Program-made: the position numbers and the translations under genes
The notes under the pieces: model-generated
Database searches by the model: none
Told to the model about the DNA's origin: nothing
What the model saw: only the letters and a program-made list of their open reading frames with translations
Shown: positions 11,713-25,458 of the stretch, piece after piece
How positions within the stretch are numbered: position 1 is the stretch's first letter
Layout: every line of letters begins with the position of its first letter
From: a virus
Taxonomy: Duplodnaviria; Caudoviricetes
Strand: one strand, 5' to 3'
Length of the DNA: 64,000 nt
IMG/VR virus record: IMGVR_UViG_3300033076_001354
Location: 64,001 to 128,000 of that record

Positions 11713-11715
11713 ATA
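11708..11715 (+). promoter_or_regulatory. Late promoter TATAAATA
   Basis: Exact match overlapping the stop of the 1928-aa gene and the next ATG. Confidence 0.55.
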
Positions 11716-11912
11716 TGAATAGCAACGAAAACTTAAAGAGGTTAGGTTCTAACCCAGGCGCGGTGGTAAACACCGACCATCCGGGACTCAAGGCGTACCG
11801 CGAGGCTAGGGAACGGGTTAGACAGAGAAACAAAGACTTTGAACAGCTGAAGACTGAAGTCACCGAGCTCAAGTCGATGCTGAACCAAATACTAGAGAAG
11901 TTGGACAAATGA
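11715..11912 (+). CDS. Small coiled-coil protein
   Basis: 65 aa, GAVVNTD...LKTEVTELKSMLNQIL; fills gap between structural genes. Confidence 0.7.
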   Translation: MNSNENLKRLGSNPGAVVNTDHPGLKAYREARERVRQRNKDFEQLKTEVTELKSMLNQILEKLDK

Positions 11913-12523
11913 CGATAGCGATCGCAAACGTAGATACAACGACCGACTCATTCGGCCAGTGGATCACGAAGACAAACGTCTTATCGGACGCTATGTCGAA
12001 CAAAGTTGTCACCACGAACTCAAACACGGCGGTAGGCAACGCGGCGGTCTCATCGGCTTTCTCAGCGAACGCCCTCTACGCAAACACCCTCTCGGGCGGC
12101 AACAACTCGGTCACCGCTCCTCTCGCCGTCGCGACCAACACGTCTTTCACGGCGAACGTAGCTTTCAACGGGTACAGGACCAACTTAGGTCTCGGCGCAA
12201 ACGTTTCCGTAAACTCGGGCAACAGCACTTTCAGGGTGCTGACGGTCAACTCCGCCGCTTCCAACACACTCGTCGCAACTAAGATCTCGTTCGGTGACTT
12301 GTATGATATGAACGTTGCGTCGGCCGGCAACGGCGAAGTGTTGGTCTATACGTCCAACGGCAACTACTGGTACAACACCAACTCGGTCAACATAAATACT
12401 ACGACAAACACCGTGACTTTCTCTGGAAACATCGTCGTGTCGGGCATCCAATACGGGAACGGACAATCGTTCAGTTCATTGGTCGTCTACTACGCGAACG
12501 GTGTCCAAGCATTTCCAACATAA
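11909..12523 (+). CDS. Short fibre/virion protein
   Basis: N-term NVDTTTDSFGQWITKTN fibre-type anchor; C-term VYYANGVQAFP shared with the 2052 protein. Confidence 0.6.
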   Translation: MTIAIANVDTTTDSFGQWITKTNVLSDAMSNKVVTTNSNTAVGNAAVSSAFSANALYANTLSGGNNSVTAPLAVATNTSFTANVAFNGYRTNLGLGANVSVNSGNSTFRVLTVNSAASNTLVATKISFGDLYDMNVASAGNGEVLVYTSNGNYWYNTNSVNINTTTNTVTFSGNIVVSGIQYGNGQSFSSLVVYYANGVQAFPT

Positions 12524-12532
12524 GCGTAAACG

Positions 12533-13630
12533 ATGGCAGCGCTACTTAAAATCAATACCGCTACGAGTCCAGTCTCCCTCAAGCAAGCTTCTGGGACCGA
12601 CTACGACTATGCTGTGAACCTGATACTTACGCAGTTCACGACCTCGACGTCGAACGCGAACATCACGGTTAATCCGGCGAACACCACGGGTTTGACGCTG
12701 ATCGGTACGTTTACTGATACGTACTTGAACGCCACGCCGGGACAACACCCGATTGGTACCACGCCGCTGTCCGTGACCTATAACTTCTACCAAGATCAGC
12801 AGGCTGCGTCAGAATCGATCACGCGTCCAATCGAGTTTGACACGACGATCAAAGAACAGAACGACACGACTTTGAACGCCGACTTGATCGCGACCGCTTT
12901 GGCTAACTTAGCGTCGACCGGCGTAGGTGCTTATGCCCTTCAGCCAACTTCACCGACGGGCGGCACTTGGGTTTCAATAAGCACGATTACCAACACACTC
13001 GACGCGGTCACAACGAACACCACTCAGCTTTGGAAAAAGACGGCGGCTGCTTCTACGCCATCTACCCTTAGGCCGATCAAGCTCAACACCGGTACTTCTC
13101 CAATCTCATTGAAGGAGATGTCGGACGCCGAGATCCAGTCGCTCGCCGCGCGCTTAAAGAATCGATTGATCGCGACCGGCATCGGTACGTACAAGATTCA
13201 AGGCACCACACCGGTAGGTGGAACATGGGTTACGTCAGGCGCCTCGTTCCTTGACACGACTAGAACCTCGTCGTCGGTTTCTTACTCCGGAACGTATACC
13301 GGCACCTACACCGGAAGCTACACAGGAAGCTACAGTGGAACGTATTCCGGTACGTACACCGGAAGCTACATCGGCACCTATAGTGGCAACTATACTGGAA
13401 CCTATCGCCCATCGTTCAACGGATACCTTGGCGGCTTCTTTACCGGTACATACACGGGCTTCTATAGCGGGACTTACATCGGAAGCTATACGGGCGGCTA
13501 CACCGGAAGCTACACTGGAAGTTATACTGGAAGCTACACAGGAAACTATACGGGTGGATACGCTGGCGATACGTTAAATAACGACAGCAGCACAGTCTCA
13601 ACAGTCTACTTATGGGTAAGGACGGCATAA
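12533..13630 (+). CDS. Fibre/spike protein with C-terminal (Y-x-G-x)n repeat
   Basis: Three internal ~90-100 aa repeats, a 24-unit tetrapeptide tract, and C-term TVYLWVRTA resembling gp10/gp12-type fibre ends. Confidence 0.65.
   Translation: MAALLKINTATSPVSLKQASGTDYDYAVNLILTQFTTSTSNANITVNPANTTGLTLIGTFTDTYLNATPGQHPIGTTPLSVTYNFYQDQQAASESITRPIEFDTTIKEQNDTTLNADLIATALANLASTGVGAYALQPTSPTGGTWVSISTITNTLDAVTTNTTQLWKKTAAASTPSTLRPIKLNTGTSPISLKEMSDAEIQSLAARLKNRLIATGIGTYKIQGTTPVGGTWVTSGASFLDTTRTSSSVSYSGTYTGTYTGSYTGSYSGTYSGTYTGSYIGTYSGNYTGTYRPSFNGYLGGFFTGTYTGFYSGTYIGSYTGGYTGSYTGSYTGSYTGNYTGGYAGDTLNNDSSTVSTVYLWVRTA
13283..13570 (+). repeat. 12-bp coding tandem repeat (TAC ACN GGN NNN) encoding Y-[TS]-G-x units
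   Basis: 11 units + FNGYLGGF + 11 units read directly from the sequence. Confidence 0.95.
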
Positions 13631-13631
13631 T

Positions 13632-14066
13632 ATGGCAAGGAAGATTATAAATCCTAGGTGGGGCAACGACGAGAAGACGGCTATTCTCGCTACGTTTAAG
13701 TACGACGACGGTCGCGAACTCGTCGCATCGATCAGCAACGTCGACGACACGATGAATCCTGATTGGAAAGAAATCATGGATACTTTCGGCGTTGAAATGT
13801 TGGATCAGAACACGGGCGACGCGCTTGAAAGCCACATGAAAAGAAAAGCTGAACGGGCCGAACGCGCTAAGATCGACCAAGATCGCGCGATGAAAGAAAA
13901 CTTGTTCAACTTGAAAGCCGAAGCCTTCGACATGGAAATCGTGAAGAACTCTAAGAACAGAGACGTCAAGAACAAGATCCGCAGGGCAGCCACTCCGACG
14001 GAAGTTCTCGTCTATACAGCTCTCCTTCACATGCTCGAGGATCCGTTGGCTAAACCCATGGCCTAA
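13632..14066 (+). CDS. Probable tail-fibre assembly chaperone
   Basis: Directly follows the fibre gene; IINPRWGNDEKTAI N-terminus and helical C-terminus resemble Tfa-like chaperones. Confidence 0.45.
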   Translation: MARKIINPRWGNDEKTAILATFKYDDGRELVASISNVDDTMNPDWKEIMDTFGVEMLDQNTGDALESHMKRKAERAERAKIDQDRAMKENLFNLKAEAFDMEIVKNSKNRDVKNKIRRAATPTEVLVYTALLHMLEDPLAKPMA

Positions 14067-14068
14067 TC

Positions 14069-14818
14069 ATGAACGGCTTTCTTTATGTGGCTTCACAGAG
14101 CGCCGCTTTCTATAAGTCAGCGGTGAACTCTGCAATATCCCTCCGTGATAATTATCCTGAAGCAAACATTACGCTCTTCACGCACGCCGACTTCGTTCAA
14201 GAGTCGGACCGCAAGTTCTTTGATAAGATTGAGACTGGGATCCCGATCCATAAGCGCGCCAAGATGTACGGCATGGCTAGGACGCCTTACGAGAAGACTT
14301 TCTACCTAGACGCCGATACTGAAATTAGATCTGAGAATATCAAAAAAGTATTTGACATCCTAGGAAACAATGATATAATGTTTACTAGGATTATATCAAA
14401 AGTTTCTAAAGATCGATTGATTGATTCCAACAATAATCTAGAGTATCACGGCGGTGTGGTTCTTTATAATTCAAAGAAGCTTACTCTTCAGTTGATGCAG
14501 GATTGGTATGAGACTTACCTGATCCAAGACCGTACGCCGTGGAGTCAAAGTCCGTTCGCCAGATTCAATCCTAAGATGAGACCATGGGATCAGTTCACCA
14601 TCTGGTACTTATTGAACGTAGATCCTAAATATAAAAAGATCAAGCACGACTTTTTTCCAGACGGCGGACACTCGTTCAACTATATAAGTCTGTTTGAAAA
14701 CTATGAAGAATTCAAAGAAATCGAACAGATCGTTTATCATCATACTATTCCACGTGACAGGATAGAAAATGCAGTCCTTATCAGACCTAAATCCGGACTT
14801 ACTGAAGACTTTAACTGA
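14069..14818 (+). CDS. GT-A fold glycosyltransferase (GT8-like)
   Basis: TPYEKTFYLDADT (DxD), GGVVLY and WDQ motifs. Confidence 0.75.
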   Translation: MNGFLYVASQSAAFYKSAVNSAISLRDNYPEANITLFTHADFVQESDRKFFDKIETGIPIHKRAKMYGMARTPYEKTFYLDADTEIRSENIKKVFDILGNNDIMFTRIISKVSKDRLIDSNNNLEYHGGVVLYNSKKLTLQLMQDWYETYLIQDRTPWSQSPFARFNPKMRPWDQFTIWYLLNVDPKYKKIKHDFFPDGGHSFNYISLFENYEEFKEIEQIVYHHTIPRDRIENAVLIRPKSGLTEDFN

Positions 14819-15428
14819 GTTCAGCAACTTCTTCTATGGGCGTGACTTCTCACACCTTGAGTCCTTGATCGGTTCAGACGAAAAAAGAAAAAACGTCAGT
14901 GTCAAGTCGATGGCTCTGGAAGCGGTCGGCGAGGAGTACTTGAGAAACGCTCTCAAAGAACCCCCGATGAAGTACGGATTCCCTAGACACTCTTGGGGAC
15001 TGGAGCTCGTGATGGATCGCCGATACATCGACGACAGGGAGCTCTTGGATAAGTCGCAGGCTGCCAACGATAAGCTGATGAACTTCTTCGGCGCGCGAAA
15101 CAACGCCCTTCAGATGTTTTATCCGTCCGGCGGCTACATCGGCTGGCACACGAACTGCAACGCTCCGGGATTCAACATCGTCCTCTCCTGCAACCCAGGA
15201 GCCAAGGGATACTTTGAGCACTACGACCACGTCAACGATAAGTTCGTTAGGTACGAAGATAAGCCGGGATGGAACTGCAAGGTCGGGTACTTCGGCCCCG
15301 ACACCGAACCGGAGAAGATGTATTGGCACTGCGCCTACACCGACACCCCTCGATTGACGTTCAGCTACGTCATATACGACAAGAACATTTGGGAAGACAT
15401 GGTGGATGACATCGGAAGAGCCGATTAA
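14769..15428 (+). CDS. 2OG-Fe(II)/cupin-type oxygenase-like protein
   Basis: YPSGGYIGWHTN...YWHCAY...RLTFSY pattern; HxN instead of HxD. Confidence 0.55.
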   Translation: MQSLSDLNPDLLKTLTEFSNFFYGRDFSHLESLIGSDEKRKNVSVKSMALEAVGEEYLRNALKEPPMKYGFPRHSWGLELVMDRRYIDDRELLDKSQAANDKLMNFFGARNNALQMFYPSGGYIGWHTNCNAPGFNIVLSCNPGAKGYFEHYDHVNDKFVRYEDKPGWNCKVGYFGPDTEPEKMYWHCAYTDTPRLTFSYVIYDKNIWEDMVDDIGRAD

Positions 15429-16164
15429 GTTCATATGTTTGAAGTGGGGAACTAAGTATGGACCCGAGTACGTCAACAGGCTTCATGAATCAGTACGGAG
15501 GCTATATCTTAAGCCTCACCGCTTTCTTTGTTATACTGATGATCCTCGAGGCCTTAGACCCGAAATCGAAGTAAAGAACATTGAGGAGCTTCGCAGGGTT
15601 AAGAACACCTGCTTCACTATGGAGAAGCTCTTCTTATTCGACGGTCTCGACTTCGAGGGACCGTACTGCCTTCTCGACATAGACATACTTATACAGTCCG
15701 ACATCACGTCTTACTTCGATGAGTATAAGTTCGTAGAACCTAGGTTCACGATTTCATCGGCGATGCATTCATACATTAAAGTCGCGCCTATATTCTCGCA
15801 AGAAGGAATGTGCTACGTCAACAGCTCGTTCGTGACTTGGACCGGCGATCAGCTTAAGTGGCTCCCCGACTTCTACATGGCGAACAAAGATATTATCGAC
15901 TATAAGTATAGAGACTTAGATACTTTCTTGTTTCACACCGTCTTAAAGAAGATGCGTTTTCACCCACAGGATATGATCTATTCTTTTAATCACGAAAAGA
16001 AGCGCTTAGACTCGCCGATAGTCATGTTCAATACTTCCCACGGTCGCGGCGTCGAGCTGCACGAGGGACCTACTTGGGCAAAGGAGTTGTGGGAATCGTA
16101 TGATAGTGAATCAGGATCCGCTCGTCTTCTAAGCGAACCTGTCGCTGCGCCGCGGTCGTCATGA
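15406..16164 (+). CDS. GT-A fold glycosyltransferase
   Basis: CLKWGTKYGPEYVNRL, CYTDD, LLDIDIL (DxD), NSSFV. Confidence 0.75.
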   Translation: MTSEEPIKFICLKWGTKYGPEYVNRLHESVRRLYLKPHRFLCYTDDPRGLRPEIEVKNIEELRRVKNTCFTMEKLFLFDGLDFEGPYCLLDIDILIQSDITSYFDEYKFVEPRFTISSAMHSYIKVAPIFSQEGMCYVNSSFVTWTGDQLKWLPDFYMANKDIIDYKYRDLDTFLFHTVLKKMRFHPQDMIYSFNHEKKRLDSPIVMFNTSHGRGVELHEGPTWAKELWESYDSESGSARLLSEPVAAPRSS

Positions 16165-16717
16165 TCTTCTTCTTGAGATACATAACCCTTCCATACTTAT
16201 TGATGAAGGTATCGTCCCCATAGTGTTCGCTCGTGTGCTTGAATATGTCGTCCATAAGCATCTGATACAGGTAGTGGTGTGAGTCTCCCACCCATCCCAT
16301 CACCGAAGAGTTTCCGTTGCAGAAGAACCTCTCCTTGTTCTTATAGTCGAGCTTATCAACGAGCCTCCACCATTCGTCGTTCTTCCATACCGTGTCCACC
16401 ACTTTCAACACGCCCTGCTGAACGTCTTCCACTAAAAAATCGATGTTCTTCTTTATGAGTATGTCAAGGTCGAAGTACAGGTTTATTCCCGGACTACATA
16501 TATCTTTGTTGAACAACAGTATCTTATTCCACCAAGTGTCGAGCTCGAACCGTGTTACGTCTATGAACTCAATGGGTCGATCCGTCTTCCAATCGGAGTC
16601 TGTCAGGCAAGTCATCTTGAATTCATGCGTTAAATACTTACGCACTTGGTCGTACAAGTTCTCGACGTGCTCTATAGAATACCTTGGCTTTACGAGTACA
16701 CAATAAACGTTTATCAT
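16070..16717 (-). CDS. GT-A fold glycosyltransferase (opposite strand)
   Basis: CLTD, WWNKILLF, YFDLDIL (DxD), NSSVMGW, GDDTFI; same family as its neighbours. Confidence 0.75.
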   Translation of the reverse strand: MINVYCVLVKPRYSIEHVENLYDQVRKYLTHEFKMTCLTDSDWKTDRPIEFIDVTRFELDTWWNKILLFNKDICSPGINLYFDLDILIKKNIDFLVEDVQQGVLKVVDTVWKNDEWWRLVDKLDYKNKERFFCNGNSSVMGWVGDSHHYLYQMLMDDIFKHTSEHYGDDTFINKYGRVMYLKKKIMTTAAQRQVRLEDERILIHYHTIPTTPLPK

Positions 16718-17426
16718 GGATCAGACCGTTAAGTTTATAGTTTTGAAGTGGGGAACCAAGTATGGTCCCGAGTACGTCAACAGGCTATTTAGGACTTTAA
16801 AAGCGACTTACTCCGGTCCCTTTGAGTTCTACTGCTTCACCGACAACAGTCGTGGTGTCGAGTGCAGGACGTATCCCATTGAGATGCTTCCGCTCTTTAA
16901 GTCAAACGTATTTACCGCGTGCAAGCTCGATCTATTCAATAAGCTTCCGTTCAAGGGACCATATTGTTTTCTCGACCTCGACCTACTCATCCTTAAAGAC
17001 CTCAAGCCGTACTTCGATGAATACGGCTTCAATGAGCCTAGGATGATATACAACTATTGGACTGAGACCGAAAGGATCTATAGGTCGTACTATACGGGCG
17101 ACTGCTACGTCAATAGTTCATTCGTGACGTGGGACGCCGACCAGCTAAGGTGGATGCGCGAGAGATTCATTGAGAACCAAGAAGTGATCTCTTTCAGGTT
17201 TAAGACTCTCGATAAGTTCATATACTATAGCAGTCGCAAGGATATGAAGTACCACCCGCGCGGGGTGGCGTACGCCTACAGCTTTGGCTCCGACCACCCA
17301 TTTGACGTCGAACCCTATAAGCTAAGGGATCAATACATATCGATATTCAACACTTCACATAAGAAAGGCGTCGAGCTACACGACGCAAACGGATGGGCTA
17401 GAGATGTTTGGACCCGGTACGACTGA
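16716..17426 (+). CDS. GT-A fold glycosyltransferase, paralog of 15406
   Basis: LKWGTKYGPEYVNRL, CFTD, FLDLDLL, YVNSSFVTW, FNTSH..GVELH shared with the 15406 protein. Confidence 0.75.
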   Translation: MDQTVKFIVLKWGTKYGPEYVNRLFRTLKATYSGPFEFYCFTDNSRGVECRTYPIEMLPLFKSNVFTACKLDLFNKLPFKGPYCFLDLDLLILKDLKPYFDEYGFNEPRMIYNYWTETERIYRSYYTGDCYVNSSFVTWDADQLRWMRERFIENQEVISFRFKTLDKFIYYSSRKDMKYHPRGVAYAYSFGSDHPFDVEPYKLRDQYISIFNTSHKKGVELHDANGWARDVWTRYD

Positions 17427-18036
17427 ACTTGACTACATCGTAGAATTAAACAGGATTCTAAATGAACTGTTTAAGCATCTTCAAAGCAGGAATCTAGACT
17501 ACGTCTATAGGTTCTATGCTATGCACAACGAAGAAAAGATGCGAAATCGCAACTTCATCGCGATGGAGGCTATAAGGAAGAACTTTAAACAACTAAACAA
17601 CGTCGCGATCGTGAACAGCAGCAGTCCCGTCGCCCTAACACACTTCTTAAAGAAGGAGTACAAATCTTCAGTGACACTGATTTCAGACCACCCGTCTTTT
17701 GAAATGTCGCTGGGATTCTTTCAGAGATTCTTTAAGGCGAACACCATAGTCAAAAGCGTCTTCTTTGAAGACGTCGATCTATCTTCATACGACTTGGTGA
17801 TCTTGTCTGAGTTTGAATACTTGGTTCCTCTCGATATGCTCAAGCACGTTAACTTCGGTGATTCACCTATAATGGCTCTTCAGCATATCCAGCACGTCAA
17901 CGATCACAACAGTCGACACATAGTCATGTGCATCGAAGACTTACTTGAGCTGTGCAACTTTAAGACTCTACTCGACTCAGGCGAGACCCTCAATATAGAC
18001 AATAGGTTCGTCTATCACGCCTTGGGAGTGAAGTGA
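17404..18036 (+). CDS. Hypothetical protein, possibly degenerate Rossmann/methyltransferase fold
   Basis: Alternating beta/alpha pattern, YDLVILSEFEY; no canonical GxG motif. Confidence 0.4.
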   Translation: MFGPGTTELDYIVELNRILNELFKHLQSRNLDYVYRFYAMHNEEKMRNRNFIAMEAIRKNFKQLNNVAIVNSSSPVALTHFLKKEYKSSVTLISDHPSFEMSLGFFQRFFKANTIVKSVFFEDVDLSSYDLVILSEFEYLVPLDMLKHVNFGDSPIMALQHIQHVNDHNSRHIVMCIEDLLELCNFKTLLDSGETLNIDNRFVYHALGVK

Positions 18037-18659
18037 TCCGGAGGAGTCAAGATGATCTTGACGTGCTCGTCGAGCCACCATGGGTCTGCAGCGTGAATGT
18101 ATTTCTCGTTAGCATCTTGCTTTAAGATCTCGTCGACCTGAGGATCTTCCCACGCCATAGGGAAGTCGAGCCAGTGACCGAGCGACTTGATGTATTGGCG
18201 TCTGTACAAGTATAGAAGTTCTTGGCTGATGAAGAAGGGCGGCACCTTCATCCATTGAATGAGCTGAGGCATGTTGCCCCAAGTCGGACCGCCGCGAAGC
18301 CTCGTCTGCTGGTGCGTCAAGATGTTCTTATCTCTGCCTATGACGACCGGTTGAACCTCGATGCCTAGACTCTGACACTTCTCCATGAACTCATAAATCG
18401 GTGGGACTTTAGGCAGCCACTTCTCAATGTATGGGTTGCTGATGCTCGTAACGGCGTACTTCTTGCCGCCCATGATGTTTAAGTCAATCTTATCGATGTT
18501 GTTCCAGTAGTAGTTGAACGGCTCTTTGTAGTGAGGGATGAAGTATCCATCGGGCTTGAGCGCGTCTTTCCAACCGTGAACTTCAGGGTGCATGCTGAAG
18601 ATCTTACCGAAGAGGTGATTGCCCGAACCCTGTGGACCGAATAGAACTATAATCTTCAT
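18015..18659 (-). CDS. Sulfotransferase-like P-loop protein
   Basis: IVLFGPQGSGNHL...HPEV (5'-PSB-like) and VVIGRD (3'-PB-like). Confidence 0.55.
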   Translation of the reverse strand: MKIIVLFGPQGSGNHLFGKIFSMHPEVHGWKDALKPDGYFIPHYKEPFNYYWNNIDKIDLNIMGGKKYAVTSISNPYIEKWLPKVPPIYEFMEKCQSLGIEVQPVVIGRDKNILTHQQTRLRGGPTWGNMPQLIQWMKVPPFFISQELLYLYRRQYIKSLGHWLDFPMAWEDPQVDEILKQDANEKYIHAADPWWLDEHVKIILTPPDHFTPKA

Positions 18660-19411
18660 CAGTTCTTCCTCAGCTCAAAGTAGAGCCTGTTGCCGTTGTC
18701 TTTCTTGAACGACTCAAGCTTACAGTCGTGGATGCTGGCGATCTTATACGCGGTCTCAAAGTCCCATGGATAGATGTCGACCCATGGACCATTCTTGTGC
18801 ACTTCACCGGGATTCGCCCTGACGTAGATCGTGCCTCCGCGCATAGTCAAGTCGATGACTTTCTTGAACCTTGCGTTGATGTCGTCGAAGTCGCCGAAGT
18901 TGATGCTGCCGAAGACGATGACGTGGTCATAGGATTCGTTGGGAACGTTGTAGTCTAGAATGTCTACCATGAAGTCGGCTGAGTTGTTGAAGGCGTCGAT
19001 GCCTACCAAGTTAGGGATCCTAGCTTTAAACTGATTGAACCCACATCCTACGTCGAGGACTGCCTTTGGGTTCGACTTATTGATTCGCTCAACTATGTTC
19101 CATCCGGTGTATTGATACACCTCGGTGCGCGGCTGCCAGATTCCTCCCCAGAACCTAGCGCTGTACTTAGTGTCTATGTCAGCTGTTAGCATAGAGACTG
19201 ACACGCCGTCGATGTTGATGTCTACGTCGAAAGTATCACTGAGCAACGCCATGAACTTCTCCTGCTTCTTTGGAGTCCATGGAAGCGATGAAACTATCGT
19301 GTGCGGATTGATATTTTCATAGACCTCAATATACTTCGGGAGATTGAAGCAGTCTTTCAAGTTTTTCAGAACGAAGTTAAAAATTTTGTGATTCACAATA
19401 AAAATTCCCAT
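18659..19411 (-). CDS. Class I SAM-dependent methyltransferase with N-terminal ACP-like segment (true start may be GTG at 19396)
   Basis: VLDVGCG motif I, GIDA, YDHVIVFGSINFG. Confidence 0.75.
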   Translation of the reverse strand: MGIFIVNHKIFNFVLKNLKDCFNLPKYIEVYENINPHTIVSSLPWTPKKQEKFMALLSDTFDVDINIDGVSVSMLTADIDTKYSARFWGGIWQPRTEVYQYTGWNIVERINKSNPKAVLDVGCGFNQFKARIPNLVGIDAFNNSADFMVDILDYNVPNESYDHVIVFGSINFGDFDDINARFKKVIDLTMRGGTIYVRANPGEVHKNGPWVDIYPWDFETAYKIASIHDCKLESFKKDNGNRLYFELRKN

Positions 19412-19426
19412 TTGAGTAATTTTTTT

Positions 19427-19457
19427 CCTTATTGATTATATATATAGATCAACAAGG
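19427..19457. promoter_or_regulatory. Dyad-symmetric AT-rich element between divergent genes
   Basis: CCTT-A-TTGAT-(TA)5-G-ATCAA-C-AAGG in the 62-bp divergent intergenic gap. Confidence 0.5.
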
Positions 19458-19473
19458 ATTTTTTCTTTAGAGG

Positions 19474-20214
19474 ATGAAAAAAATGACGACTTATCAAGAC
19501 TGGGGCGACAGCCGCTGGGAATTCACCAAGAGTCAAAGTAAGTGGCACTTTGATCCATCCCGACCTCCGGTTCCCGGTCTAGACAGCTACACACACGTGT
19601 GTAGGTTCGACGCCGACTTTACCGACGCGATCGCCAAGTGTATGCCTCGAGCTAAAGCGAGCAGCTGGAGCAGCAGAAATAATTTCAACGAAAAGATAGC
19701 GGAGCAGGGACTTTATTCCGCGAGCCTTGAGGAGAAAGACCTCATCAGGGCTGGAGCAGATCCTAAACAAGAAGTGTTTCATCGCACGGCGGCCGAGGAC
19801 ATCGACGTCTTTCAAAAGATCGCAGCTTGGCTCGGCATCGATGAGCCGATGATTAAGTTCCACAACCAGACTACTGGTCAGATGCTTCACACTCACTTGG
19901 ACAACTTCGCCGCGCGCCCCGAGCGCGAGAACAGCTTCAAGGAGACTGAGATCGACAAGAACCCCGACATCATGAGAAGGTTCGCAATCATGCTTGCGGA
20001 CTGGGAGCTCGGTCAGATCTTTCAGATCGGCAACGCGAACTTCACCCAGTGGAAAGCGGGCGACTGCATCACTTGGGAATGGAAGGACATGCCGCACAGC
20101 ACGGCTAACATGGGATGGTGGGATCGCCCGATGCTTCAGATCACGGGATACACCACCGACAGAACCAAAGAAGTTCTCGGCGGTGCCGGAAAGAATCTGG
20201 TCGTAAAGATATGA
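19474..20214 (+). CDS. 2OG-Fe(II) dioxygenase
   Basis: HTHLD (HxD) ... PHSTAN ... R-x-x-LQITG distal His/Arg pattern. Confidence 0.65.
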   Translation: MKKMTTYQDWGDSRWEFTKSQSKWHFDPSRPPVPGLDSYTHVCRFDADFTDAIAKCMPRAKASSWSSRNNFNEKIAEQGLYSASLEEKDLIRAGADPKQEVFHRTAAEDIDVFQKIAAWLGIDEPMIKFHNQTTGQMLHTHLDNFAARPERENSFKETEIDKNPDIMRRFAIMLADWELGQIFQIGNANFTQWKAGDCITWEWKDMPHSTANMGWWDRPMLQITGYTTDRTKEVLGGAGKNLVVKI

Positions 20215-20954
20215 ATCAAGTCATCGCCGTCGCTTATATGCCGGGTGCCTATGGCAGCTTTCTCTGTTGGGCACTCGAGAGATTCTCAAAAGTAAGGAAG
20301 TCTTACCACCCACCGGTCACCGATAACCCTCTTCTTCCGGACGGCAGCAGCCACGCCTACGCGAGCTTCTGTAAAGTCAAGCAGGAAGACCAGTTCATCG
20401 ATGGCCTCAACGTTGCCAGAAACTCAGTCGTCCCATGGAACCACAACGTATACGCGGGATGGCCGTGCGGCAAGAGCGAGAACTTACAGAAGACCGTAGA
20501 GAACATAGGTTCTTGGATGAACACGATGGACAGGCTTATAGTGGTAGTTCCTCAGACTCCCGTGGATCATTACATCTGCTACATTAGGAATGAGTTTACC
20601 CTTGACAAAACCCGCTGGTATGATATATTGGGTATTGAAAAAGATGAACAGCTTTACGAGAGAATGATCGAAGACATCGAGGCTGACTACTCGCTCAACG
20701 TCGAAGACCCTAGGATCTTAAAGCTGACGATCTCTGAGATCCTATATGATCCACCGTACGTATTGTTCGGTAAGATCGCCAAGCTCGTGGGTTGGCCTAC
20801 CTGCGACTTTGGTCTCTTTGAGACTACTCTCTATGAGATGAGAAAAAGGCAAGAGAAGTATTTCAATATGATCACTGACGCCAACAAGGGCGACAGCTTA
20901 ACGCAGCGTGCAATAACTAAATTTAGACTGGAGTACAATAATGGATTTAACTAA
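20211..20954 (+). CDS. Sulfotransferase-like/P-loop hypothetical protein (start ATG 20211)
   Basis: VAYMPGAYGSFLCWAL N-terminal loop; ATGA overlap with upstream gene. Confidence 0.4.
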   Translation: MNQVIAVAYMPGAYGSFLCWALERFSKVRKSYHPPVTDNPLLPDGSSHAYASFCKVKQEDQFIDGLNVARNSVVPWNHNVYAGWPCGKSENLQKTVENIGSWMNTMDRLIVVVPQTPVDHYICYIRNEFTLDKTRWYDILGIEKDEQLYERMIEDIEADYSLNVEDPRILKLTISEILYDPPYVLFGKIAKLVGWPTCDFGLFETTLYEMRKRQEKYFNMITDANKGDSLTQRAITKFRLEYNNGFN

Positions 20955-22395
20955 AATCTTTCCGTTGTTCACTCCGGATACGGGCATCACAGTTCTAGCT
21001 GTGTATGCCGCAATCGTGTTCGGACTGACATGGGTATTTGCTAGCGGATACGCTTGGAATAAAGAAAGCTTCTTCGTCGCAAGACGCGAAGTCAGCACGC
21101 TGCAGGGTGCGATGAGCACGGGTGCCGCGTGGATGTGGGCACCGGGAATGTTCATCTCGGCGCAGCAGGCATATATGAACGGACTCGTCGGTTTGTTCTG
21201 GTTCTGTATCGGTAACTTCCTCAGCTTGATCTTGTTCAGTTGGTTCGCCAATCGCCTACGCGATCGCAAGCCCGATGGATTCACGATCTCAGGCTACTTG
21301 AGAGAGAAGTTTGGCAAGCGCGTTCAGGTGCTGTTCATGATCGAACTGCTCTCGCTCGCGGTGTGCAGCTTCGCCATCAACGCGCTGGCAGGAAGCAAGA
21401 GCGTCGAGGTGATCACTGGCATGAGCTACCACACGGTTAGCTTGATCCTCGCGGCGATCGCATTGGTCTATACCATTCGCGGCGGCCTCAAGGCATCCGT
21501 CATCACCGAGATGTTTAAGCTCTCTGTGTTGGTATTGGGTCTTGCGTTCATCGTTCCATGGGCGATCAACACCGCCGGTGGTCTCAGCATCGTCGACCTA
21601 GGACTCGGTGGAATCACCGGCAACGGTCGCGACATCATCGGCACGCCCTTCGCGCTCGGTGTGTTCATGGGCTTCGGCTTCTCCACCGCCATCGGTCACC
21701 TCGGTGCACCTTGGGGAGACAACGCCTTCTATCAGCGCGCCTTCGCAGTTCGTAAAGAGTCCGTGATCAAGGCATTCGTCGGTGGCGCGTTCATCTTCAT
21801 CTTGACGCCGCTGATGACGGGTCTCCTTGGATTCTTGGCCGCTGGTCTCCAGTACCAAGTTCCTAAAGAGCTGCTCGGCTACGTGAACATCCTCACCGTC
21901 GGAAGCCTGCTTCCTTCTTGGGTTGTCGTGCTCTACTTGTTCATGCTGTTCGCAGGCCTCGTGTCTGTGCTTGACTCGCAGCTGAGCTCGGTCAGCAACA
22001 TCTTTGGTCACGATGTCAAGAACTTGGTCGCAGCGGATCAAGACGAAACCAGCAGCATCAAGATCGGTCGCCTTGGTATGATCCTCTTGATCCTTGGCGG
22101 TCTCACCATCGCAAACTGGCCGGGAATGACACTCGTCACGATCTTCCTGTTCTTTGGTATCCTCAGAGCAACCGTTTGGTTCCCTCTCATGTTCAGCCTT
22201 TGGAATGAAAAGCTTGTGAATGAGAAGGGTATGTTCTGGGGTGTGTTGATCGCATACGTGGTTGGATTCACCACCTACGTCTACGGTCAAAACTTCGGAG
22301 GCGGTCCAAACATCGCGGTGCTTGGAACTTGTCTCGCGGTCTTCGGCTCGGGCGCTTTGGCACTCGGCATCACAAGAGTGACAGATGCCCGTTAA
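20941..22395 (+). CDS. Sodium:solute symporter (SSS) family transporter
   Basis: ~13 hydrophobic segments; ESFFVARR, AAWMWA, YTIRGGLKASVITE, FYQRAFA, SVLDSQL motifs. Confidence 0.85.
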   Translation: MDLTKIFPLFTPDTGITVLAVYAAIVFGLTWVFASGYAWNKESFFVARREVSTLQGAMSTGAAWMWAPGMFISAQQAYMNGLVGLFWFCIGNFLSLILFSWFANRLRDRKPDGFTISGYLREKFGKRVQVLFMIELLSLAVCSFAINALAGSKSVEVITGMSYHTVSLILAAIALVYTIRGGLKASVITEMFKLSVLVLGLAFIVPWAINTAGGLSIVDLGLGGITGNGRDIIGTPFALGVFMGFGFSTAIGHLGAPWGDNAFYQRAFAVRKESVIKAFVGGAFIFILTPLMTGLLGFLAAGLQYQVPKELLGYVNILTVGSLLPSWVVVLYLFMLFAGLVSVLDSQLSSVSNIFGHDVKNLVAADQDETSSIKIGRLGMILLILGGLTIANWPGMTLVTIFLFFGILRATVWFPLMFSLWNEKLVNEKGMFWGVLIAYVVGFTTYVYGQNFGGGPNIAVLGTCLAVFGSGALALGITRVTDAR

Positions 22396-22846
22396 GAAGA
22401 TCTTAATAATGGGCTTGCCGGGATCGGGAAAAACGACTCTGGCAAGAGCCTTGGCACCAAAGCTCGGTGCGGTTCACTGGAACGCGGATGCAGTAAGGGC
22501 TGAGATAAACTCTCACCTCGGCTTCAGCGAGAAAGACCGCATCGAGCAGGCGCGAAGGATGGGGTGGCTCTGTGATCAAGTCGTCAAGGCTGGTCACTGG
22601 GCCATCGCCGACTTCGTGTGTCCGACCAAAGAGACGCGGGACGCTTTCGGCGAATGCATCACCATCTGGGTCGACACTATAAAAGAGGGTAGGTTCGAAG
22701 ATACAAACAAGTTGTTTGAGCCGCCCGTTAAATACGACTACAAGGTGACTGAACAGAACTCAGACTTCTGGGCTAAGTTCTTAGCGGAAGACCTTGACTT
22801 CTATGAGAAGCCTACCTTCTTTAAAGCCATATTAAAGGGTTTGTGA
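22385..22846 (+). CDS. cysC: Adenylylsulfate (APS) kinase-like protein
   Basis: GLPGSGKTT Walker A, DAVR, LGFSEKDRIEQARR, FVCP, FEPP match CysC motifs. Confidence 0.7.
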   Translation: MPVKKILIMGLPGSGKTTLARALAPKLGAVHWNADAVRAEINSHLGFSEKDRIEQARRMGWLCDQVVKAGHWAIADFVCPTKETRDAFGECITIWVDTIKEGRFEDTNKLFEPPVKYDYKVTEQNSDFWAKFLAEDLDFYEKPTFFKAILKGL

Positions 22847-23196
22847 TGTTTGATTATAACAAGCCGACCGTGCAGATGTTGGGCAGGTACCAACCGTGGC
22901 ACGCCGGACACCATGAATTGTTTAAGCGCGCTTACGCGAAGACCGGACAAGTCTGCATCATGGTTAGAGACGTCGACGAAGCTTTCAACTACAGGGAAGT
23001 GGAGTCGAGGATCATCGACGACCTTTACATACACGGCTATGAAAACGGCGTCGACTTCATCGTGCTTCGTGTACCAAACATCGTCAACATCACTTATGGT
23101 CGCGACGTTGGGTATAAGATCGAGCAGGAGCACCTAGGTGAAGAGATCGAGAGCATCTCAGCCACGAAGATTCGCAGAGAGATGGGAATCGAATAG
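22843..23196 (+). CDS. HxGH nucleotidyltransferase (cytidylyltransferase-like)
   Basis: GRYQPWHAGH and ISATKIR motifs. Confidence 0.75.
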   Translation: MMFDYNKPTVQMLGRYQPWHAGHHELFKRAYAKTGQVCIMVRDVDEAFNYREVESRIIDDLYIHGYENGVDFIVLRVPNIVNITYGRDVGYKIEQEHLGEEIESISATKIRREMGIE

Positions 23197-23200
23197 GTGA

Positions 23201-23815
23201 ATGCATAAGTACATATTCATCGCCGGCGCGCCGGGATCCGGATGGAGCAGGGTCGCGCTGAGCATACACAATAGTCCAAGCATTGACTACAGCGACTGGT
23301 CGAAAGACCAGTCGTGGACTTTTATAAACGACAAGAATCTAGAAGAAAAAAGCTATCACTCCGGCGCTTACTTTGGACCCGATCAAAAATACGGAAAGAA
23401 ATTCGATCGTCTCGATGAATTAACTAAAGACGAGATCGAAGAAGAGTTTGCCCGCCCATTCAAGGGATCCGGCACTAAGATAATAAAGTGCCACGACTTT
23501 GCTTATCAACTCGACTTTATAAAAGAACACTGGCCTGATTGTCCTATAATAACTTGTCATAGGCCGACTGAAATATGCTATAGTTGGTGGATGTATGTCG
23601 GAGGTGCTGACATAGCTTTCCCGTCTTATAAAATGTTGAAGACGATTGATCCCAAGAAATACATGGACAAGTGCAACCAAGGGATAGAGAATTTCTTGGC
23701 AGAGAATAAAACGATCGGGCTTGAAAACAACATTGAGCTGTGTGAGATCTTAGAGCTCGACTATCCTAAAAATATAATCTACTTTGACCACGCGAACGTA
23801 TGTATAAAGGTTTGA
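23201..23815 (+). CDS. Sulfotransferase-like protein
   Basis: YIFIAGAPGSGWS, IIKCH, CHRP; paralog of 24449. Confidence 0.5.
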   Translation: MHKYIFIAGAPGSGWSRVALSIHNSPSIDYSDWSKDQSWTFINDKNLEEKSYHSGAYFGPDQKYGKKFDRLDELTKDEIEEEFARPFKGSGTKIIKCHDFAYQLDFIKEHWPDCPIITCHRPTEICYSWWMYVGGADIAFPSYKMLKTIDPKKYMDKCNQGIENFLAENKTIGLENNIELCEILELDYPKNIIYFDHANVCIKV

Positions 23816-23816
23816 T

Positions 23817-24449
23817 ATGGAAAAGATCTTCTCCCTAATCAAAGAAGCCAACGATGAAACTCTATGGATGTTTTCCAGAGACGTTCACGACCTCATACTC
23901 GAGAAGTACTACAGCACGTATTGGCCCGACGTTCCCAATGGCTTCGACGAAAGTAAGACCAAGTCGATCGAGATGATCGTCAACCTACACGAATGTAAGA
24001 ACATACTCGACGTCGGATGCGGCTACAATCACTTCAAAGATAAGTTCCCCGATGCAAAGTTCACCAGCATCGAGCCGTACATCGACGGTGCAGACTATAA
24101 GATGACTGTGACTGAGTACCAACGAAACTTTCCGGATCGCCAGTACGACTGCGTCATGGCTCTTGGTTCGATCAACTTTGGTCCCAAGGCAAAGATCCTT
24201 GAAGAAGTCGAGGCGATGGATAAGCTCACTCGACCAGAAGGCATTCAAATCTGGCGCGTCAATCCTAGGGACAAACCCTTCGTCGACGACAGATTTCCCA
24301 TATCAGAACTCATTCAATACTACGGTTGGGATGAGCCGTTCATTCGCCACATCAGCGAAGTGTACAACTATAGGTTGATCGAATACAAAGAAGAGATGAA
24401 CTACTCCAACGATCGAAGGATCTTTTTTATCATGAAGAAAGGCCTGTAA
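23817..24449 (+). CDS. Class I SAM-dependent methyltransferase, paralog of 18659
   Basis: ILDVGCGYNHFK, YDCVMALGSINFG, RVNP. Confidence 0.75.
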   Translation: MEKIFSLIKEANDETLWMFSRDVHDLILEKYYSTYWPDVPNGFDESKTKSIEMIVNLHECKNILDVGCGYNHFKDKFPDAKFTSIEPYIDGADYKMTVTEYQRNFPDRQYDCVMALGSINFGPKAKILEEVEAMDKLTRPEGIQIWRVNPRDKPFVDDRFPISELIQYYGWDEPFIRHISEVYNYRLIEYKEEMNYSNDRRIFFIMKKGL

Positions 24450-25096
24450 TGAAGTACATATTCATGGCCGGCGCACCCGGATCAAAGTGGAGCTCGGTCG
24501 CCCGCAGCATCTACTTCAGCAGCGACATCAATCAGAGCGACTTCTCGCTCAATCGCAGGTACTTCCACGACGCGTCGGGTAAGCGCCAGCTCATGCACCT
24601 TGGGTCCTACTTCGATCCGGGAATGGAGTTCGGAAACGAGTTCAACATGCTCAACCTATTAAGCAAAGAAGAATGCGAGCAAGAGTTCGATCGACCGTTC
24701 ACCCACGACATGGGAACAAAGATTATAAAGAGCCACTTCTTTACGTACTACTTAGATTATCTCAAAGAAACGTGGAAAGACCCGATAGTCTTGGTAAGTC
24801 GTGACTCGGACGCCTGTATAGGGTGGTGGATCAGGTGCGGTCACTTTAACATCACCTATCCTAAGTACGACTTCTATAAAAACATCGACGATATGGTCAA
24901 GTACGTCGATGCCCAGAATAAGTTCATAAAGAGGTTCATCGATGAGAACGAGACCCTTCAGGTATGGAACAGCCTCGAGCTGGCCCAAGCCCTAGGAATC
25001 AACGACGAGGGCGTCTACCACCAAGACTACAAGCGAAACGACATCAAGGTCCACCTCTACTGGGGCAAATACGACGGGAGTCAGGCTTTCCTCTGA
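24449..25096 (+). CDS. Sulfotransferase-like protein
   Basis: YIFMAGAPGSKWSSV, IIKSH, LVSRD. Confidence 0.5.
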   Translation: MKYIFMAGAPGSKWSSVARSIYFSSDINQSDFSLNRRYFHDASGKRQLMHLGSYFDPGMEFGNEFNMLNLLSKEECEQEFDRPFTHDMGTKIIKSHFFTYYLDYLKETWKDPIVLVSRDSDACIGWWIRCGHFNITYPKYDFYKNIDDMVKYVDAQNKFIKRFIDENETLQVWNSLELAQALGINDEGVYHQDYKRNDIKVHLYWGKYDGSQAFL

Positions 25097-25099
25097 GAA

Positions 25100-25107
25100 T
25101 ATAAATA
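25100..25107 (+). promoter_or_regulatory. Late promoter TATAAATA
   Basis: Exact match at the right boundary of the enzyme island. Confidence 0.75.
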
Positions 25108-25131: not shown

Positions 25132-25458
25132 ATGGCAACGAAACTCAATCTGGTCATAGACCAAGGCGCGACCTATTCAAACGCGATTCTCGTGAAAGAT
25201 TCTAGCAACAACGCGATCAATCTTTCGACCTACACCGTAGCGGGACAGATAAGGAAGTACTACACTTCTTCGAACAGCACCGCTTTCACGGCGACCGGAA
25301 ACAGCACCGGTTACGTCAACATCTCACTTACAGCAAACGCGACGGCGAACCTCTCTTCGGGCAGGTACGTCTACGACGTTGAGATCACCAGCAACACGGG
25401 CATAGTGACACGTGTTACGGAAGGCATAGTCACGATCACACCTCAAGTGACACGATAA
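25132..25458 (+). CDS. Small virion structural protein (Ig-like, LVIDQGAT family)
   Basis: LVIDQGATY...GRYVYDVEIT...TRVTEGIVTITPQVTR, conserved in T4-like cyanophages. Confidence 0.7.
   Translation: MATKLNLVIDQGATYSNAILVKDSSNNAINLSTYTVAGQIRKYYTSSNSTAFTATGNSTGYVNISLTANATANLSSGRYVYDVEITSNTGIVTRVTEGIVTITPQVTR

Follow-up and report, generated by a model that had tools for sequence, protein, structure and literature searches.

What does an 11-kb block of glycosyltransferase, methyltransferase and sulfotransferase-like genes do inside the tail-fibre region of a phage, and do these genes act together? The question is raised by positions 14069–25096 of a 64,000-nucleotide stretch of DNA (the whole of which is referred to as the window) that corresponds to bases 64001–128000 of the 157.6-kb viral record IMGVR_UViG_3300033076_001354 (CheckV completeness 98%). 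A first-pass annotation of this island had proposed a single, self-contained pathway that makes a sulfated and methylated glycan on virion proteins; the enzyme classes that it assigned were for the most part upheld. Our analysis revealed that the island is not one pathway but consists of two joined modules, namely a fibre-linked glycosylation module (module A, 12533 to 18036, closed by 25132–25458) and a sulfation cassette (module B, 18015 to 25096).

Module A consists of the following genes (GT, glycosyltransferase; 2OG, 2-oxoglutarate; aa, amino acids):

12533–13630, plus strand: g12533, a YxGx-repeat protein, first gene of a four-gene operon
13632–14066, plus strand: g13632, a 144-aa partner protein, always encoded between the YxGx and GT8-like genes
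14069–14818, plus strand: g14069, a putative glycosyltransferase of GT-A type (GT8-like; DxD at D81/D83), third operon gene
14769–15428, plus strand: g14769, a protein with a prolyl-hydroxylase-like 2OG-oxygenase fold (H127-x-N129...H187...R195), fourth operon gene
15406–16164, plus strand: g15406, a GT-A paralogue with a DxD motif, 43% identical to g16716 (PHROG glycosyltransferase match, E 7e-4)
16070–16717, minus strand: g16070, a GT-A paralogue with a DxD motif (PHROG glycosyltransferase match, E 6.5e-9), of a family conserved in relatives
16716–17426, plus strand: g16716, a GT-A paralogue with a DxD motif (PHROG glycosyltransferase match, E 1e-5)
17404–18036, plus strand: g17404, function not assigned, trailing the GT-A paralogues in many module A loci
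25132–25458, plus strand: g25132, a small fibre-module protein (phrog_1084, E 8e-27; phrog_3304, E 3e-20)

The order of these genes was derived from profile searches of the open reading frames (ORFs) in viral contigs, in scans anchored either on the GT-A paralogues (79 loci of 205 confirmed stretches) or on g14769 (80 loci of more than 531 confirmed stretches). The YxGx protein g12533, g13632, the GT8-like g14069 and the oxygenase g14769 followed one another in a fixed operon order, always on a single strand, and the four-gene operon was complete in 56 of the 57 loci with sufficient upstream DNA. GT-A paralogues, two to four in number and soluble, came next in 61 of 63 loci, after which g25132 closed the set, being present 3′ of the GT-A genes in most loci of sufficient length. 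Operon order and strand, along with the link to one structural gene, were conserved at identities as low as 30%. The left part of the island is locked to the YxGx fibre gene across more than 50 divergent viral loci, and module A represents an ancient and very widespread component of the fibre genes.

In the YxGx protein itself, 240 conserved N-terminal residues precede 23 (Y/F)xGx repeats, which are followed by a C-terminal end that is likewise conserved. Repeats and C-terminal end were retained in 22 g12533 homologues, which carry 7–39 repeats each at a constant period. No family match to its partner g13632 was found in Pfam or PHROG, and we can only guess that it might be an assembly factor. 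The sole GenBank carrier of module A that we found is the Kyanoviridae phage C48C1 (OQ984149), in which a repeat protein gene precedes counterparts of g13632, g14069 and g14769, together with a homologue of g25132 and a gene annotated as tail fibre. This C48C1 repeat protein, annotated as hypothetical, measures 3348 aa, and its globular parts are split by many (Y/F)xGx blocks. The C48C1 repeats (L199, OQ984149 1–7688) often take the form of an eight-residue unit with Arg.

Module B consists of the following genes (SAM, S-adenosylmethionine; APS, adenosine 5′-phosphosulfate; SSF, sodium:solute symporter; TPST, tyrosylprotein sulfotransferase):

18015–18659, minus strand: g18015, a candidate sulfotransferase (family STa) whose invariant motifs are a GPQGSGNH loop near the N-terminus and a GRD at mid-protein
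18659–19411, minus strand: g18659, a class I SAM methyltransferase with motif I, paralogue of g23817
19474–20214, plus strand: g19474, a probable 2OG-Fe(II) oxygenase (H141-x-D143...H208...R218)
20211–20954, plus strand: g20115, function not assigned, with its likely start ATG at 20211 overlapping the g19474 stop
20941–22395, plus strand: g20941, an SSF transporter (Pfam SSF 92.6 bits versus a cut-off of 22.8, E 3e-26)
22385–22846, plus strand: g22385, an APS-kinase-like P-loop kinase (Pfam APS_kinase 58 bits versus a cut-off of 21.1)
22843–23196, plus strand: g22843, a nucleotidyltransferase of 117 aa (HxGH, GRD and ISAT motifs; CTP_transf_like 22 bits)
23201–23815, plus strand: g23201, a sulfotransferase (family STb), 41% identical to its paralogue g24449
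23817–24449, plus strand: g23817, a class I SAM methyltransferase (BLAST to g18659 E 9e-18; hhalign probability 100)
24449–25096, plus strand: g24449, a sulfotransferase (family STb) with a predicted TPST-like fold

A kinase-anchored scan of viral contigs yielded 35 loci, about 20 of which share a core of g18015, methyltransferase, g19474, transporter, kinase, nucleotidyltransferase and g24449. Glycosyltransferases and a YxGx gene accompany the kinase in only one of these 35 loci, and the commonest setting of module B is beside genes for the tail-sheath stabiliser gp15 and a Nudix protein, away from fibre genes. A sulfotransferase of any kind was present in only 7 of 75 fibre-cassette loci, and other lineages combine module A with only a sulfotransferase, a methyltransferase and oxygenase g19474. 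Moreover, a complete 338-kb phage genome contains g18015, methyltransferase, transporter, kinase and nucleotidyltransferase, and neither a GT8-like gene nor a module A oxygenase was detected there by a search that finds both in the source genome. Two relatives with 80–94% identity (L046 and L048) carry the whole island minus the kinase and the nucleotidyltransferase. These distributions do not support the single self-contained pathway proposed initially, and indicate that its sulfation half is a separate mobile cassette: gene occurrence independent of one another and of the structural module, which the first-pass annotation had named as grounds for refutation, was found for the right half of the island and clearly not for the left half. 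Because gene content differs between relatives, the sulfation genes are to be seen as an optional add-on, and the donor-supply genes as optional within it.

The cassette also varies in its neighbours. One locus holds a GIY-YIG/NUMOD3 homing-endonuclease gene between the nucleotidyltransferase and sulfotransferase genes (L015:10842–11489). In jumbo-phage loci (L030–L034, ~6400–11300), the kinase and nucleotidyltransferase genes directly follow a ThyX gene, and in L030–L032 the pair also follows radical-SAM and SPASM genes, homologues of which lie elsewhere in the source genome. A canonical Pfam Sulfotransfer_3 gene was found 3 kb past the kinase–nucleotidyltransferase pair in a jumbo phage. Some cassette variants include a 358-aa gene with a weak match to the arginine-deiminase (ADI)/amidinotransferase fold (L019:6739–7815, L010:7452–8528 and L027:6605–7690), of which a homologue with 32–33% identity is located in the source genome ~5.8 kb beyond the end of the window.

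The source phage is an uncultured, aquatic, T4-like myovirus. Genes for the baseplate wedge, the sheath and the large terminase (TerL) can be recognised in its genome, and its TerL is 55% identical to cyanomyovirus terminases. No psbA gene was found in the phage genome and, given this result and a TerL identity of only 55%, a cyanophage identity was dropped. At the level of near-identical DNA, no GenBank phage matched the island. In agreement with the initial count, positions 14069–25096 are filled by 16 ORFs that are tightly packed or overlapping (gaps from –95 to +62 nt), with structural genes on both flanks; 13 have plus orientation, and the other three (16070–16717, 18015–18659 and 18659–19411) are minus-strand ORFs. 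The G+C content is 0.46–0.49 across most of the island, compared with 0.51–0.53 in the structural genes to its left.

The T4-type late promoter motif TATAAATA occurs at eight exact sites in the window, compared with 0.69 expected by chance, and all eight are on the plus strand, each ahead of structural genes. Two of these sites bracket the region and none falls within the island. The features concerned are:

11708–11715, plus strand: late promoter motif, exact match to TATAAATA, upstream of g11909/g12533
11909–12523, plus strand: g11909, a fibre-like protein with a weak PHROG match to a family of unknown function
19412–19473, no strand: divergent intergenic region, with TATATATA at 19437 here and an exact TATAAATA in eight relatives
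25100–25107, plus strand: T4-type late promoter motif, exact TATAAATA, ahead of g25132

The late promoter called earlier at the right edge of the island was thus recovered as an exact motif. Its counterpart at 11708 overlaps the stop of a 1928-aa gene, and ~190 nt without an ORF of at least 60 aa separate it from g11909 (11708–11908), the homologues of which are kept only in nearer module A relatives, 5′ of the YxGx gene (L045–L060 and L123–L131). In eight gp15-type loci, TATAAATA occupies the short divergent gap 5′ of the oxygenase g19474 gene, where it is almost the sole site in 8–20 kb. With the motif flanking the island and, in eight relatives, preceding the operon that runs from this oxygenase gene to the sulfotransferase gene, the late-promoter context fits the interpretation given before. 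Scans for sigma-70 promoters (18 versus 15.2 in shuffled sequence) and terminators (16 versus 12.6 in shuffled sequence) did no better than shuffled sequence. At this chance level overall, the sigma-70 scan returned two sites that may be meaningless, a perfect 12/12 consensus with an extended –10 TG inside g14069 (14352–14379, plus strand) and an 11/12 consensus inside g20115 (20602–20629, plus strand).

The oxygenase that ends the four-gene operon was recognised by its predicted structure. The AlphaFold2 (AF2) model of g14769, with a predicted local distance difference test (pLDDT) score of 92.9, gave Foldseek matches to P4H, PHD2 and AlkB at E 4e-5, and prolyl hydroxylases came top in a VIA search (Z 10.3, 10.3 and 10.0), in which 50 of the 50 listed rows were 2OG oxygenases. 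A profile search of the PDB yielded nothing significant. R195, at the position of the 2OG-binding Arg and eight residues past H187, is invariant. Of the two dioxygenase-like proteins proposed initially, g14769 is thus supported by predicted fold, but lacks the HxD/E...H iron triad: it has HxN rather than HxD, with N129 in the place of the acid and invariant in 18 sequences. D153, 24 residues beyond N129, is also invariant in the family and might, to judge from sequence, stand in for the iron-binding acid. This Asn-for-Asp/Glu exchange characterises the entire group of viral prolyl-hydroxylase-like proteins homologous to g14769, a very large family; more than 500 viral stretches encode relatives of g14769.

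The other dioxygenase-like protein, g19474, displays an HxD...H...R motif of which H141, D143, H208 and R218 did not vary among 12 sequences with identities as low as 28%, the Arg lying ten residues past the distal His. This motif argues for a dioxygenase, although the named relatives remain a lead from a language-model atlas, in which the nearest named cluster is Asp/Asn beta-hydroxylase. A PDB profile search found nothing significant, its weak match being AtsK at E 0.11, and AtsK-like release of sulfate from organosulfates was dropped, as this match was its only basis. The g14769 and g19474 families were not supported as relatives by hhalign.

The DxD motif is invariant in both glycosyltransferase families, i.e. 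the GT8-like g14069 (D81 and D83) and the GT-A paralogues. Within the g14069 family, Glycos_transf_2 was matched by 7 of 17 members and Nucleotid_trans by 6 of 17 (best E 5e-4), and its PDB matches were confined to glycogenin at a non-significant E of ~0.7. The GT-A paralogues gave weak PDB profile matches to LgtC (GT8, E 0.15). Relatives of g16716 are encoded in 205 viral stretches, and a protein search with g16716 against GenBank phages gave no match. No support for kinship between g14069 and the GT-A paralogues was obtained with hhalign. The call of four DxD GT-A enzymes therefore holds for the motif and is accompanied by weak profile matches, but not by any match at a curated cut-off. As for g17404, which had been regarded as a possible degenerate methyltransferase, no hhalign similarity to the island methyltransferases was seen (probability 0.3).

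Four proteins of module B had been put forward as sulfotransferase-like, and predicted fold supports this for g23201 and g24449. An AF2 model of g24449, built on an alignment with 39 homologues (pLDDT 91.4), retrieved TPST1, TPST2 and tick TPST first in the VIA search (Z 11.2, 10.6 and 10.5), and sulfotransferases occupied each of the nine top rows (Z 8.2–11.2), with kinases from Z 8.0 down. The top match in BFVD, and the sole strong one, was a 'Sulfotransferase family' protein (UniProt) from an uncultured Caudovirales phage, at 52% identity, whereas Foldseek against the PDB gave nothing below E 0.001 and did not separate the model from P-loop kinases. The STb family has an invariant G8-A-P-G-S12, W14 and S15 after strand 3–8, and an invariant R118 and near-invariant D121 after strand 113–117; in the ligand-free model, these positions would fit the layout of the 5′-phosphosulfate strand-loop-helix and the 3′-phosphate Arg. 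The curated score of Sulfotransfer_3 was not reached (17.6 bits for g23201 versus a cut-off of 27, and no match for g24449), but a few STb homologues carry PF13469. Searching GenBank phages with g24449 revealed only two marine single-cell virus records.

For g18015, the assignment is a lead from the language-model atlas, where its neighbours include sulfotransferase clusters (score 0.94), together with the layout of its motifs. No PDB or Pfam match was found for this protein, and none of its 3309 homologues is annotated. The STa and STb families were not supported as relatives by hhalign, their match being limited to the first 28 residues (probability 19), and PDB profile searches with either family yielded nothing significant. 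Each of these two sulfotransferase-like families numbers about 3300–4000 sequence clusters, nearly all unannotated. The fourth candidate, g20115, received no support, as no Pfam, PHROG or NCBIfam match was found and hhalign against both sulfotransferase families gave a probability of 0.4; its homologues (249 aa) occur only in L007, L015, L046 and L048.

The two SAM methyltransferases are paralogues, as had been noted, and form the sole supported pair in an all-against-all hhalign comparison of the island families. Their motif I (LDxGCGxN) has invariant L119, D120, G122, C123 and G124. Methyltransf_25 was matched by 10 of 12 family members with a best E of 0.0014, below the cut-off, and the PDB matches were mostly methyltransferases at E 0.003–0.1.

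The transporter, the CysC-like kinase and the nucleotidyltransferase were all upheld. In addition to its Pfam score, g20941 has at least ten hydrophobic segments and matches TIGR00813 at E 7e-38, with weaker matches to PutP and PanF models and no NCBIfam subfamily cut-off reached; it is the only island protein with a membrane span, all enzymes being soluble. A search of GenBank phages with g20941 found only two faecal contigs. Transporter homologues fall into two deeply split types, 74–84% versus 36–42% identical to g20941; the kinase in loci of both types stays 69–77% identical, and g20115 occurs only with the first type.

A profile of 14 kinase homologues matched APS kinases in the PDB at E 1e-12, with residues 5–96 of 153 aligned and no APS-kinase match detectable for the C-terminal third. 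Compared with 3uie and 1d6j, the invariant D35, R38, F47, R52 and C79-P80 line up with the APS-binding substrate motif, and the first Asp of LDGD is Asn. In the g22843 family (14 sequences), H20-x-G-H23 is invariant, as is R87 of G86-R87-D88 (D88 being Ala in one of the 14), and IxAT is invariant with a near-invariant Ser in ISAT. The N-terminal two thirds of g22843 match archaeal-type nicotinamide-mononucleotide adenylyltransferase (NMNAT) in a PDB profile search (E 5e-10, profile positions 10–86 of 122), and the protein holds a GRxQPxHxGH motif; however, it scored 26 bits versus a cut-off of 127 with the NCBIfam NMNAT model and has 117 aa versus ~170. Its HxGH and GRD may correspond to the HxxH and GRD loops of the ATP sulfurylase family.

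Kinase and nucleotidyltransferase genes are adjacent in 32 of the 35 kinase-anchored loci and fused in two (L036 and L037), and phrog_10255 covers both as a single chain. The shared order, kinase then nucleotidyltransferase, is that of the domains in animal 3′-phosphoadenosine 5′-phosphosulfate (PAPS) synthase. Furthermore, the stop of the nucleotidyltransferase gene overlaps the start of a sulfotransferase gene in relatives (about 17 loci).

In the reading that we prefer, and to which we give about an even chance, module A decorates the fibre protein late and in the cytoplasm, with module B as an optional and mobile sulfation/methylation add-on. What we infer in this scheme is which acceptor is modified, by what chemistry and with which donor, and when the genes are expressed. 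Late in infection, the oxygenase g14769 would hydroxylate, or otherwise prepare, the YxGx-repeat protein in the cytoplasm, after which the GT-A enzymes would build a short glycan on it ahead of virion assembly. Module B, which was inserted into module A in the source lineage, may sulfate and methylate the same product, with the SSF transporter importing a precursor and the kinase and nucleotidyltransferase jointly making PAPS, or a PAPS-like 3′-phospho-ADP donor, as a split PAPS synthase would. The protein-directed tailoring proposed earlier is consistent with the predicted structures, as the nearest structural relatives of g14769 and g24449 act on proteins. A fuller version, in which the fibre repeat is hydroxylated and glycosylated and, in some lineages, O-sulfated and methylated with a donor from the phage's own split PAPS synthase with a 117-residue adenylyltransferase, strikes us as unlikely. 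TPST-like sulfation of the YxGx tyrosines belongs only to this fuller version and not to the preferred scheme, given that module B also exists where module A is absent and that acidic residues are missing from the repeats.

Several observations weigh against decoration of the fibre. The oxygenase g14769 may not hydroxylate, because an invariant Asn replaces the iron-binding acid, and the YxGx repeats contain neither Pro nor Lys, the residues on which its closest structural relatives usually act. The assignment of the four GT-A proteins rests on sub-threshold matches. On the side of the donor, the kinase scored 55.7 bits with TIGR00455 versus an equivalog cut-off of 138.7, and the PDB profile search with g22843 found no ATP sulfurylase at E up to 1, its nearest match being NMNAT. 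The reduced module B that stands without module A in the complete 338-kb genome, and the close relatives that keep the island minus the kinase and nucleotidyltransferase, count in the same direction.

So does the published interpretation of comparable GT8-rich fibre regions in pelagimyophages and cyanomyophages, which are held to alter the host surface (PMC7029224, PMC12801897). Applied here, the island enzymes would modify precursors of host lipopolysaccharide (LPS), capsule or S-layer glycans on the inside of the membrane, and the changed surface would block superinfection or keep new virions off cell debris. Much as auxiliary genes do, module B moves from one genomic setting to another, and it exists without module A, as such a role would allow. 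We nevertheless regard host-envelope remodelling as a serious but rather unlikely rival: a host-directed set would not need the fixed order and strand that module A keeps with one structural gene at down to 30% identity, and the late promoter context would leave little time for surface turnover. Moreover, no flippase, polymerase, ligase, membrane-anchored transferase or nucleotide-sugar synthesis gene was found within the island, and the closest folds act on proteins. The genomic anchoring of module A also bears on hypermodification of DNA, in which the enzymes would add sugars, methyl or other groups to phage DNA bases. Phage glycosyltransferases and 2OG oxygenases are often DNA-directed, AlkB and TET are among the g14769 fold matches, and the kinase and nucleotidyltransferase lie beside ThyX in some phages. 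Yet prolyl hydroxylases outrank AlkB and TET in these matches, module A is fixed to a fibre gene and not to replication or nucleotide genes, the promoters are late, and sulfated DNA is not known, which makes DNA a very improbable substrate indeed.

Two further explanations concern mainly module B. It might serve as metabolic support that raises the supply of adenine cofactors, with the sulfotransferase-like proteins being incidental; its product could then be PAPS for sulfur assimilation, coenzyme A (CoA) via PanF-like uptake and kinase and phosphopantetheine-adenylyltransferase (PPAT)-like steps, or NAD via an NMNAT-like step. The nucleotidyltransferase is indeed nearest to NMNAT, with PPAT weaker, the transporter weakly matches PanF and PutP models, in jumbo phages the kinase–nucleotidyltransferase pair adjoins ThyX and radical-SAM genes with no other part of module B, and one complete 343-kb record has the kinase with no sulfotransferase detected. 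However, the substrate motif kept by the kinase is the one of APS kinases rather than of CoaE or NadR, about 17 loci show translational coupling of the nucleotidyltransferase gene with a sulfotransferase gene, a different sulfotransferase family stands beside the pair in G002, and two to four sulfotransferase genes per island are hardly incidental, leaving metabolic support improbable in our view. Alternatively, module B, with or without module A, might hydroxylate, methylate, sulfate and glycosylate an imported small molecule, such as an osmolyte, signal or toxin-like metabolite, the transporter importing the scaffold. The mix of enzymes resembles the tailoring sets of natural-product clusters, a transporter lies within the cassette, and some variants add the amidinotransferase/ADI-fold gene. 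This small-molecule tailoring seems improbable as well, since there is no scaffold-forming enzyme, the late promoters and structural-gene setting fit it poorly, and the closest sulfotransferase folds are protein sulfotransferases.

Literature searches on phage sulfotransferases, PAPS and virions found only lists of auxiliary genes, and a search on prolyl hydroxylase with phage glycosyltransferases found nothing closer; two parts look new, namely the operon of four genes in fixed order and the sulfation cassette, which probably supplies its own donor. The fibre-region glycosyltransferases of marine and freshwater T4-like phages have so far been ascribed to host-surface change, to which the four-gene operon offers a concrete rival in the form of a self-decorated fibre. 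If true, fibre glycans would influence which hosts abundant aquatic phages infect, how sticky they are and how well they survive. For its part, the sulfation cassette bears on the use of sulfate esters by phages and on a 117-aa nucleotidyltransferase doing the work of ATP sulfurylase; if the sulfated-fibre interpretation were true, this would be the first sulfated phage virion, with the smallest known enzyme of the ATP sulfurylase type.

Compared with known systems, module A shares its setting with the GT-rich host-recognition cluster of pelagimyophages and cyanomyophages, which, according to Zaragoza-Solas et al. 2020 (PMC7029224), alters the O-chain of the host. This cluster likewise belongs to T4-like aquatic myoviruses, has many glycosyltransferases (GT8 being the commonest) amid tail-fibre genes, and includes an Asp/Asn beta-hydroxylase-like gene. 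However, that paper describes no fixed operon with a YxGx-repeat gene and has no mention of sulfotransferases or methyltransferases, and in the passages considered there is no kinase–nucleotidyltransferase pair and no transporter. The same host-surface view was taken of the glycosyltransferase genes of a cyanophage (PMC12801897).

The pairing of a PHD/P4H-type oxygenase with GT-A glycosyltransferases on one protein is found in the giant-virus collagen enzymes (PBCV-1 vCPH, 5c5t; mimivirus L230) and in the Skp1 pathway (PhyA, 6t8m), and the best VIA fold matches of g14769 include vCPH (Z 9.4) and a Dictyostelium PHD (Z 10.3). In both L230 and Skp1, hydroxylation is followed by glycosylation of one protein. 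The phage system differs in that its YxGx repeats are devoid of Pro and Lys and its oxygenase has HxN rather than HxD. Virion glycosylation is established in mycobacteriophages, where phage glycosyltransferases encoded beside the structural genes reportedly decorate the phage's own virion proteins (Freeman and co-workers, 2023). That system involves another phage lineage and other enzymes, and is not known to include hydroxylase, sulfotransferase or donor-supply genes.

For the sulfation cassette, TPST1/2 (5wri, 3ap3 and 8w5z) are the top structural matches of g24449 (Z 11.2, 10.6 and 10.5 over ~164 residues) and resemble it in having a strand-loop-helix at the N-terminus and an RD motif at mid-protein. 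They differ in that identity is 14–15% with no sequence-level match, and in that g24449 is a soluble protein of ~210 aa. TPSTs prefer an acidic context, which the neighbouring tyrosine repeats lack. With respect to PAPS synthase and CysC/CysDN, the phage nucleotidyltransferase differs by its 117 aa and its nearness to NMNAT, and the kinase by a C-terminal third without a match; what these systems have in common is the APS-kinase motif and, with the kinase first, an adjacent or fused nucleotidyltransferase of the superfamily of ATP sulfurylase, and sulfotransferases adjoin the phage pair.

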